Assembly (NCBI RefSeq): GCF_003334405.1
Contig: NZ_QOWM01000006.1
DNA length: 64,000 nucleotides
Direction: 5' to 3' (one strand)
DNA from: Escherichia coli
Lineage (GTDB): Bacteria; Pseudomonadota; Gammaproteobacteria; Enterobacterales; Enterobacteriaceae
The notes beneath the pieces are model-generated. The model had not been told where the DNA came from. It worked only from the letters and a program-made list of their open reading frames with translations, and searched no databases. A program made the translations under genes and the position numbers. Below are positions 14,063-14,102 of the stretch, piece by piece (the first letter of the stretch is position 1; each line of letters opens with the position of its first letter).

Positions 14063-14102
14063 GCTAAGGTTGAAGGGGCTGGAACGCCCCTTCAACCTTA
14101 GC
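14063..14102 (+). terminator. perfect 17-bp inverted repeat hairpin immediately after the yabP stop (no U-tract)
   Basis: gctaaggttgaaggggc-tggaac-gccccttcaaccttagc; stem perfect, no following T-run. Confidence 0.3.

Follow-up and report, generated by a model that had tools for sequence, protein, structure and literature searches.

Introduction

Template switching has been documented to make perfect hairpins in one event, and to keep their arms homogeneous (PMC8794818, PMC5941160). In such snap-back inverted duplications one arm was there beforehand and the second reproduces it exactly as the reverse complement, so that the stem is perfect and the loop short. At the RNA level, stable stem-loops without a U-tract are found at the steady-state 3' ends of Rho-dependent or processed transcripts, where they block PNPase and RNase II (Dar and Sorek 2018, PMC6061677). 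A G+C-rich hairpin at the 3' end of a gene is also part of the canonical intrinsic terminator, and the REP/BIME elements are intergenic hairpins that can stabilise the upstream mRNA. Relics of the insertion sequence ISEc13 are annotated by RefSeq as pseudogenes of a 'transposase DNA-binding-containing protein'.

We describe here a perfect palindrome at positions 14063–14102 of a 64,000-nt stretch of Escherichia coli DNA (assembly GCF_003334405.1, contig NZ_QOWM01000006.1), to which we refer below as the window. The palindrome has the features listed above for template-switch duplications, and shares with them an arm homogeneity that persists without selection. It is unlike quasipalindrome correction of the Ripley type in that the event here coincides with truncation of an IS and fusion to the 3' end of a neighbouring gene; also, no quasipalindrome is present at the equivalent site of ISEc13 and the family copies that we compared. 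As in the class of Dar and Sorek (PMC6061677), a stable stem follows the stop codon, a U-tract is absent and, in one K-12 dataset, a 3' end has been mapped at the stem, whereas the dominant end lies 3–4 nt inside the descending arm and the stem, at 17 bp and −33 kcal/mol, is of unusual length. We rejected an intrinsic terminator on the + strand: the stem is of the kind expected, but the longest U-run on this strand is 2 and the mapped 3' end lies inside the stem, not 7–9 nt downstream within a U-tract. Membership among REP/BIME elements was rejected also, as the palindrome is single-copy in E. coli (one place per genome across 2,072 genomes), is unrelated in sequence to REP and derives from IS coding sequence. 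The right arm and the loop lie inside one of the RefSeq pseudogenes, the annotation of which omits the inverted duplication at the truncation point. The palindrome adds an example to kinds of event already known and does not represent a new type of system; in the literature on yabP/yabQ, EspY1 and ISEc13 we found no description of it.

The djlA-rluA islet and yabP

The region of the window with which we are concerned is the lptD-djlA-yabP-rluA-rapA segment of E. coli. An islet of ~1.5 kb (12947–14469), made up of the djlA terminator, espY1/yabP, the palindrome and an IS relic, lies here between djlA and rluA, and about 2,082 of 5,426 complete E. coli genomes carry it. At the empty site of CFT073, djlA and rluA are 117 bp apart and their spacer contains REP-like elements, which stand where the IS-derived rluA terminator would be. 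The islet, which is lower in G+C than its flanks, takes the place of this entire REP-containing spacer, with its borders at both stop codons. The djlA terminator hairpin (12984–13012, GGTGGCCGCCCTGGCGGTCACTTCTTTGA) is inside the islet and corresponds to a K-12 3' terminus at 58239–58250. The rluA terminator on the − strand (stem at 14399–14420, region 14393–14435) is a hairpin and then a T-run, which a terminator scanner flagged as terminator-like; it is IS-derived, and intact ISEc13 has the same hairpin and T-run just inside its terminal repeat. The primary 3' terminus of rluA in K-12, at 59606–59616 with a signal of 0.99 (PMC10687069), maps right after this IS-derived hairpin. Since both terminators are islet-borne, both of the flanking core genes end their transcripts in islet sequence.

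A scan of genome contigs for YabP, as a source of an outgroup, gave just one locus, on the 1.6-kb contig JAIJJM010000692.1 of a 'Collinsella sp.' metagenome-assembled genome. This contig bears the E. coli yabP-IS relic-rluA junction and almost certainly reached the bin as E. coli contamination. The chromosomal djlA-rluA locus also turned up on PLSDB 'plasmids' 655 kb and 4.9 Mb in length, which are probably misassigned chromosome sequence.

The yabP gene of the window (13241–14062, + strand) is an intact ORF of 273 aa with pentapeptide repeats, and according to RefSeq names it is the intact form of yabP/yabQ and the ortholog of the type III effector EspY1. In K-12, a 16-nt deletion splits the gene into yabP and yabQ. 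The repeats appear in the DNA as ~7 tandem 15-bp units at 13792–13931, and a second stretch with a 15-bp period occurs at 13962–14013; copy number varies among strains, the O157 gene being 45 nt shorter, and the last ~17 codons are found in three different reading frames among alleles. Within E. coli, EspY1 alleles are 68–100% identical in protein sequence. In an alignment of 9 loci, 107 of the 822 yabP positions were polymorphic, or 13% vs 4–5% in djlA, rluA and the IS relic, which suggests diversifying selection or recombination in yabP/espY1. Many database entries label EspY1/YabP 'UDP pyrophosphate phosphatase', and this looks like a propagated misannotation.

Geometry, fold and rarity of the palindrome

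The left arm, GCTAAGGTTGAAGGGGC (14063–14079), is the exact reverse complement of the right arm, GCCCCTTCAACCTTAGC (14086–14102), and the two are separated by the 6-nt loop TGGAAC (14080–14085; GTTCCA on the − strand). The arms are 100% complementary over 17 bp, with 10 G-C pairs among them, and the TAA of the 13241–14062 ORF abuts the stem. The original prediction, of a perfect 17-bp inverted repeat that starts on the first base after the yabP stop codon, is thus borne out in both particulars, although the abutment is specific to this reading frame: O157-type EspY1 ends at a TGA at 14050–14052, 10 nt upstream. That prediction also held that no T-run follows the stem and that it is no canonical terminator. 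This is correct for the + strand, where AGTAGCGTGG / AGUAGCGUGG follows and a U-tract is absent, but not in full for the − strand, where the stem is followed by TTATTCTG, with an interrupted UUAUUCU, and the scanner reports a terminator-like sequence with 5 T in 8.

RNA folding, which had been proposed as a check, gave −33.0 kcal/mol for the 40 nt of the + strand and −33.9 kcal/mol for those of the − strand (z ~ −8.7), and none of 200 shuffled sequences folded as well. The palindrome in a 91-nt context gave −38.1 kcal/mol and a z of −6.2. A window-wide scan showed it to be the longest perfect inverted repeat with a short loop in the 64 kb, and by our own estimate ~3e-5 perfect 17-bp stems with loops no longer than 10 nt would be expected by chance in that length (~64000 x 8 x 4^-17). 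The palindrome is real, and far beyond chance. A second copy of its arm was not present within the window, even when 3 mismatches were allowed, and an Rfam search at E up to 10 gave as its sole result for the palindrome a plant miRNA model at 12 bits (E = 5.9), which is meaningless. The same window-wide scan recorded, at 38731–38790, an AT-rich imperfect palindrome with overlapping 34-nt arms that are 76% complementary.

Identity of the arms and origin of the palindrome

We hold with high confidence, from comparison of the sequences, that the palindrome is a scar left by inverted duplication where an ISEc13-like element was truncated and fused to the 3' end of espY1/yabP. A left-end relic of such an element (IS4/Tn5 family) occupies 14081–14435 on the − strand, ~355 bp that are 88% identical to ISEc13. 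It contains a relic of the terminal inverted repeat (14417–14435, − strand; CTGCCTCTTGTACATAAAT vs CTGTCTCTTATACACAAGT in the ISEc13 alignment), the hairpin and T-run, a 5' UTR and ~58 frameshifted N-terminal transposase codons that begin with the ATG at 14257–14255. BLAST places the IS end at position 1966 of locus L004 in our collection of loci. The RefSeq pseudogene, with its C-terminus missing, is annotated at 14079–14257 on the − strand and so overlaps the loop and the right arm.

On the − strand, the final 17 bp of what remains of the transposase gene form the right arm. The codons of this arm, GCT AAG GTT GAA GGG GC, specify AKVEGA (AKVEGAF with the next residue) and are 15/17 identical to GCT CAG GTT GAA GGT GC of ISEc13 (AQVEGA; GCTCAGGTTGAAGGTGC), in register with the residues TAQVEGAY of the ISEc13 transposase. 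The 2 differences in 17 equal the overall divergence of the relic, 12%, and the left arm mirrors both of them. The loop, GTTCCA on this strand, is identical to GTACCG of ISEc13 at 4 of 6 positions, and its base A14080 is unaccounted for by a simple ISEc13 alignment. In BLAST comparisons with many genomes, homology to ISEc13 ends at 14081, within the loop, which places the breakpoint at the left edge of the loop. From here ISEc13 and two further family copies, which make three independent sequences, run on with GCGTACCGCCTGATGCG / CCTGATGCGTAACCCG; none of the three contains the palindrome or a counterpart of the left arm. The window instead continues past the loop, on the − strand, with the exact reverse complement of the right arm and then the complement of the yabP 3' end. 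On these alignments the transposase gene, as truncated, ends with the right arm and loop, and the left arm is the inverted duplicate of the right.

A natural variant bears on the same point. In strain Z1323CEC0014 (NZ_CP148426.1) an ISEc13 gene-conversion tract of ~155 bp runs from 14252 to 14099 and stops inside the right arm, where it has made one stem mismatch; the left arm is untouched. The conversion touches the right arm alone, and it follows that only the right arm is IS-homologous. The tract also overwrote the old relic and erased its frameshifts, so that IS relics, though decayed, can evidently still recombine with active copies.

The events were probably as follows. An ISEc13-like element would have lain beside the espY1/yabP cassette, its transposase gene reading toward yabP, and a rearrangement would have removed all that lay beyond transposase codon ~58. 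At the break, the 3' end of the DNA may have folded back on itself, or the polymerase may have switched strands, such that the last 17 nt of the remaining IS were copied as their reverse complement and then joined to the 3' end of yabP. The outcome would be a right arm and loop from the IS, and a left arm that is an inverted copy. The identities of the arms and the position of the junction are read directly from the DNA, and the simplest reading of them is a single complex event within the IS, in which a break was followed by fold-back or template switching. The suggestion made earlier that the palindrome might be a remnant of recombination stands in so far as the palindrome lies exactly at the junction of espY1/yabP with a truncated ISEc13; that an IS relic and an inverted duplication are involved had not been recognised.

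A different history would begin with a long inverted duplication, or with two inverted IS copies around espY1 in the manner of a Tn5-like composite, to give a large palindrome centred at 14082/14083 of which the left copy was later trimmed to 17 bp. The orientation of the relic would suit the right-hand IS of such a composite, since its outer end is at the islet border and its transposase gene points inward, and the palindrome is indeed deletion-prone, as is apparent from a 44-bp deletion between TGA repeats that is described below. Large palindromes are unstable. BLAST detected no IS homology anywhere in the left part of the islet, however, and for this reason the composite transposon as such was rejected. 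Also, GAGCCAGAATAA, which borders the left arm on its left, is unrelated to the IS sequence that borders the right arm on its right when the latter is read as its reverse complement, and the trimming would require two events where fold-back or template switching requires one. We therefore regard this history as unlikely.

Several simpler candidates for the arms were set aside. They are not the terminal repeats of an IS or a MITE, because they consist of internal transposase codons 6 nt apart and the true IS end is at 14417–14435. In other ISEc13 relics the truncation falls elsewhere and no such palindrome is seen, so that the site is not a recurrent processing site, and a truncation hotspot was rejected on this ground. 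Hairpin chemistry of the Tn5-type transposase was set aside because the site is ~350 bp inside the element and has no end-like sequence; the Tn5-type hairpin forms at transposon ends.

A parent IS with exactly this right arm was found neither in the metagenome scan nor among complete E. coli genomes. The metagenome scan did yield three JGI contigs (L018–L020), which represent one unrelated non-coding sequence in which the 21-mer GCTAAGGTTGAAGGGGCGTTC of the right arm and loop recurs. Homology in the flanks and Rfam matches were both absent from these contigs, and by our own estimate a 19-mer should find ~1–2 matches by chance in a metagenome collection of that size; the 21-mer match is probably due to chance.

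The palindrome at the 3' end of yabP/yabQ mRNA

In K-12 the palindrome is at 59280–59319 and is identical in sequence to that of the window. A published study that re-analysed RNAtag-seq reads of LB-grown K-12 (TRS; PMC10687069, Supplementary Data 3, sheet 'LB RNAtag-seq') lists a 'Primary' yabQ 3' terminus on the + strand at 59309–59319, with the dominant position at 59315. This terminus was significant in three libraries (adjusted p of 3.1e-4, 8.5e-8 and 0.024), ranked 1068 at low expression, and had a maximum U-tract of 2 (PMC10687069). The equivalent positions of the window, 14092–14102 on the + strand, are in the descending arm; the peak ends at the last base of the stem. Mapping of 3' ends had been proposed as a check on the palindrome, and in this one dataset a terminus is found on its descending arm. 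For the RNA stability element that the original prediction put forward as one option, this terminus is indirect experimental support. The Term-seq tables of PMC7815308 have no entry at 5927x–5932x or under yabP/yabQ, and nothing was found for a 3' end at the palindrome in PMC9002310.

These observations are consistent with the following scheme. On the yabP/yabQ (espY1) mRNA the 40 nt would fold to the −33 kcal/mol hairpin with no U-tract behind it; transcripts that read through would most likely be trimmed by 3'->5' exonucleases back to the hairpin, which would then protect the RNA and set its steady-state 3' end, as do the U-less stem-loops of Rho-dependent transcripts. Involvement of Rho is uncertain here, because the downstream sequence on the + strand is A-rich with G>C and thus is atypical of a rut site. 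We have moderate confidence in the hairpin as a putative U-less protective 3' stem-loop for the espY1/yabP mRNA, a function that would probably be fortuitous. As an account of the whole, we think it probable that the palindrome is both things at once, a rearrangement scar presumably made by fold-back or template switching, and a U-less protective 3' stem-loop on yabP/yabQ mRNA to which exonucleases would trim.

Natural variants and conservation

The original prediction had suggested a search for the palindrome in other enterobacterial genomes. It was kept in 2,072 of the ~2,082 islet genomes and was missing in ~10. The outcomes that the original prediction had named as refuting it, no 3' end at the site and a palindrome lost or degenerate at orthologous loci, were not what we observed. 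Over 50 nt, 2,015 of the 2,072 were identical and 57 had 1–2 differences. The palindrome is the same in K-12, O157:H7 and the window strain, and is unchanged also in strains with yabP alleles that diverge by 13% at the DNA level or 24% at the protein level. Variants of the loop included A14083G in strain EC1515 and an additional G after 14085 in the O145:H28 strain 16003.

A deletion of 44 bp between the TGA at 14071–14073 and the TGA at 14115–14117 (span 14071–14117) removes most of the palindrome. It was seen in strains ZF8-1, 14EC033, A16 and ETEC6335, which are on related backgrounds, and the identical junction occurred in at least 8 genomes. The deletion allele is derived, because it also loses 15 bp of contiguous IS sequence. 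Whether recurrent or clonal, a deletion between TGA microhomologies is the pattern expected of hairpin-stimulated slippage. Among the complete E. coli genomes, all islet alleles carried the palindrome or the derived deletion, and an allele that predates the inverted duplication was not found.

In the 9-locus alignment, polymorphic sites numbered 0/34 in the stems, 1/6 in the loop and 16/334 in the relic. About 1.6 would have been expected in the stems, and the probability of observing 0 is ~0.2, which is not significant. The stems are invariant across K-12, O157 and the divergent-yabP alleles, so that compensatory changes, and with them a covariation signal, were absent. Nothing in these comparisons would indicate that selection keeps the hairpin, as conservation of the stems appears to be no greater than that of neutral flanks, and the hairpin looks like a young by-product that is identical by descent.

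Two further views of the present-day hairpin depart from the probable one given above in opposite directions. In the first, a single fold-back or template switch would have made de novo the element that forms and protects the 3' end of espY1, and the element would since have been retained as benefiting espY1 expression. We consider this doubtful. If true, it would provide a dated case, traceable through a population, in which transposase coding sequence gave birth to a functional RNA element, and the 44-bp deletion would be the natural knock-out of that element. In the second, the palindrome would be a neutral scar with no molecular consequence, and the reported terminus an RNAtag-seq artefact of a very stable hairpin. 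A single dataset reports the terminus, at rank 1068 and low expression with a weakest adjusted p of 0.024, the Term-seq tables of PMC7815308 lack it, and conservation does not exceed that of neutral flanks, all of which would be in keeping with a neutral scar. Yet three replicate libraries gave a significant terminus, and its peak stops precisely on the final base of the stem, where an exonuclease would be expected to stall. Stable stem-loops that lack a U-tract are well established as determinants of 3' ends (PMC6061677). A scar without consequence is, in our judgement, quite unlikely.

Other functions considered

The terminator-like sequence on the − strand raises the prospect that the palindrome terminates transcription in that direction, or in both, where it would stop read-through from the IS relic or rluA and insulate espY1 from antisense RNA. 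The fold of −33.9 kcal/mol and the TTATTCTG that follows, with 5 T in 8 by the scanner, are what would be wanted of such a terminator, but this U-tract is interrupted and is merely the complement of the codons CCA GAA TAA. Neither PMC10687069 nor PMC7815308 lists a − strand 3' terminus near K-12 59271–59279; at a signal of 0.99 the rluA terminator upstream is very strong, and little transcription should arrive; and a scan of the relic found no promoter-like site. A terminator function on the − strand is very unlikely, because no − strand terminus is listed there and the rluA terminator is strong.

The original prediction also mentioned a protein-binding palindrome, and an operator or a cruciform recognition site of this kind, for which perfect dyad symmetry alone would speak, is extremely improbable for an element of which one arm is transposase coding sequence copied by accident, which is single-copy, is lacking in 61% of E. 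coli genomes, has been lost by deletion from some genomes with the islet, and matches no known motif or RNA family.

Implications

The value of these findings is in annotation and as a small case study, and our understanding of any pathway is unchanged by them. At this locus the transcripts of djlA, yabP/espY1 and rluA all end in hairpins that are islet-borne or IS-borne. The palindrome offers a checkable case in which one mutational event would have made a perfect RNA hairpin that marks the 3' end of an mRNA, and a conspicuous perfect hairpin in the reference genomes of E. coli K-12 and O157 can be explained as a by-product of the decay of an IS.
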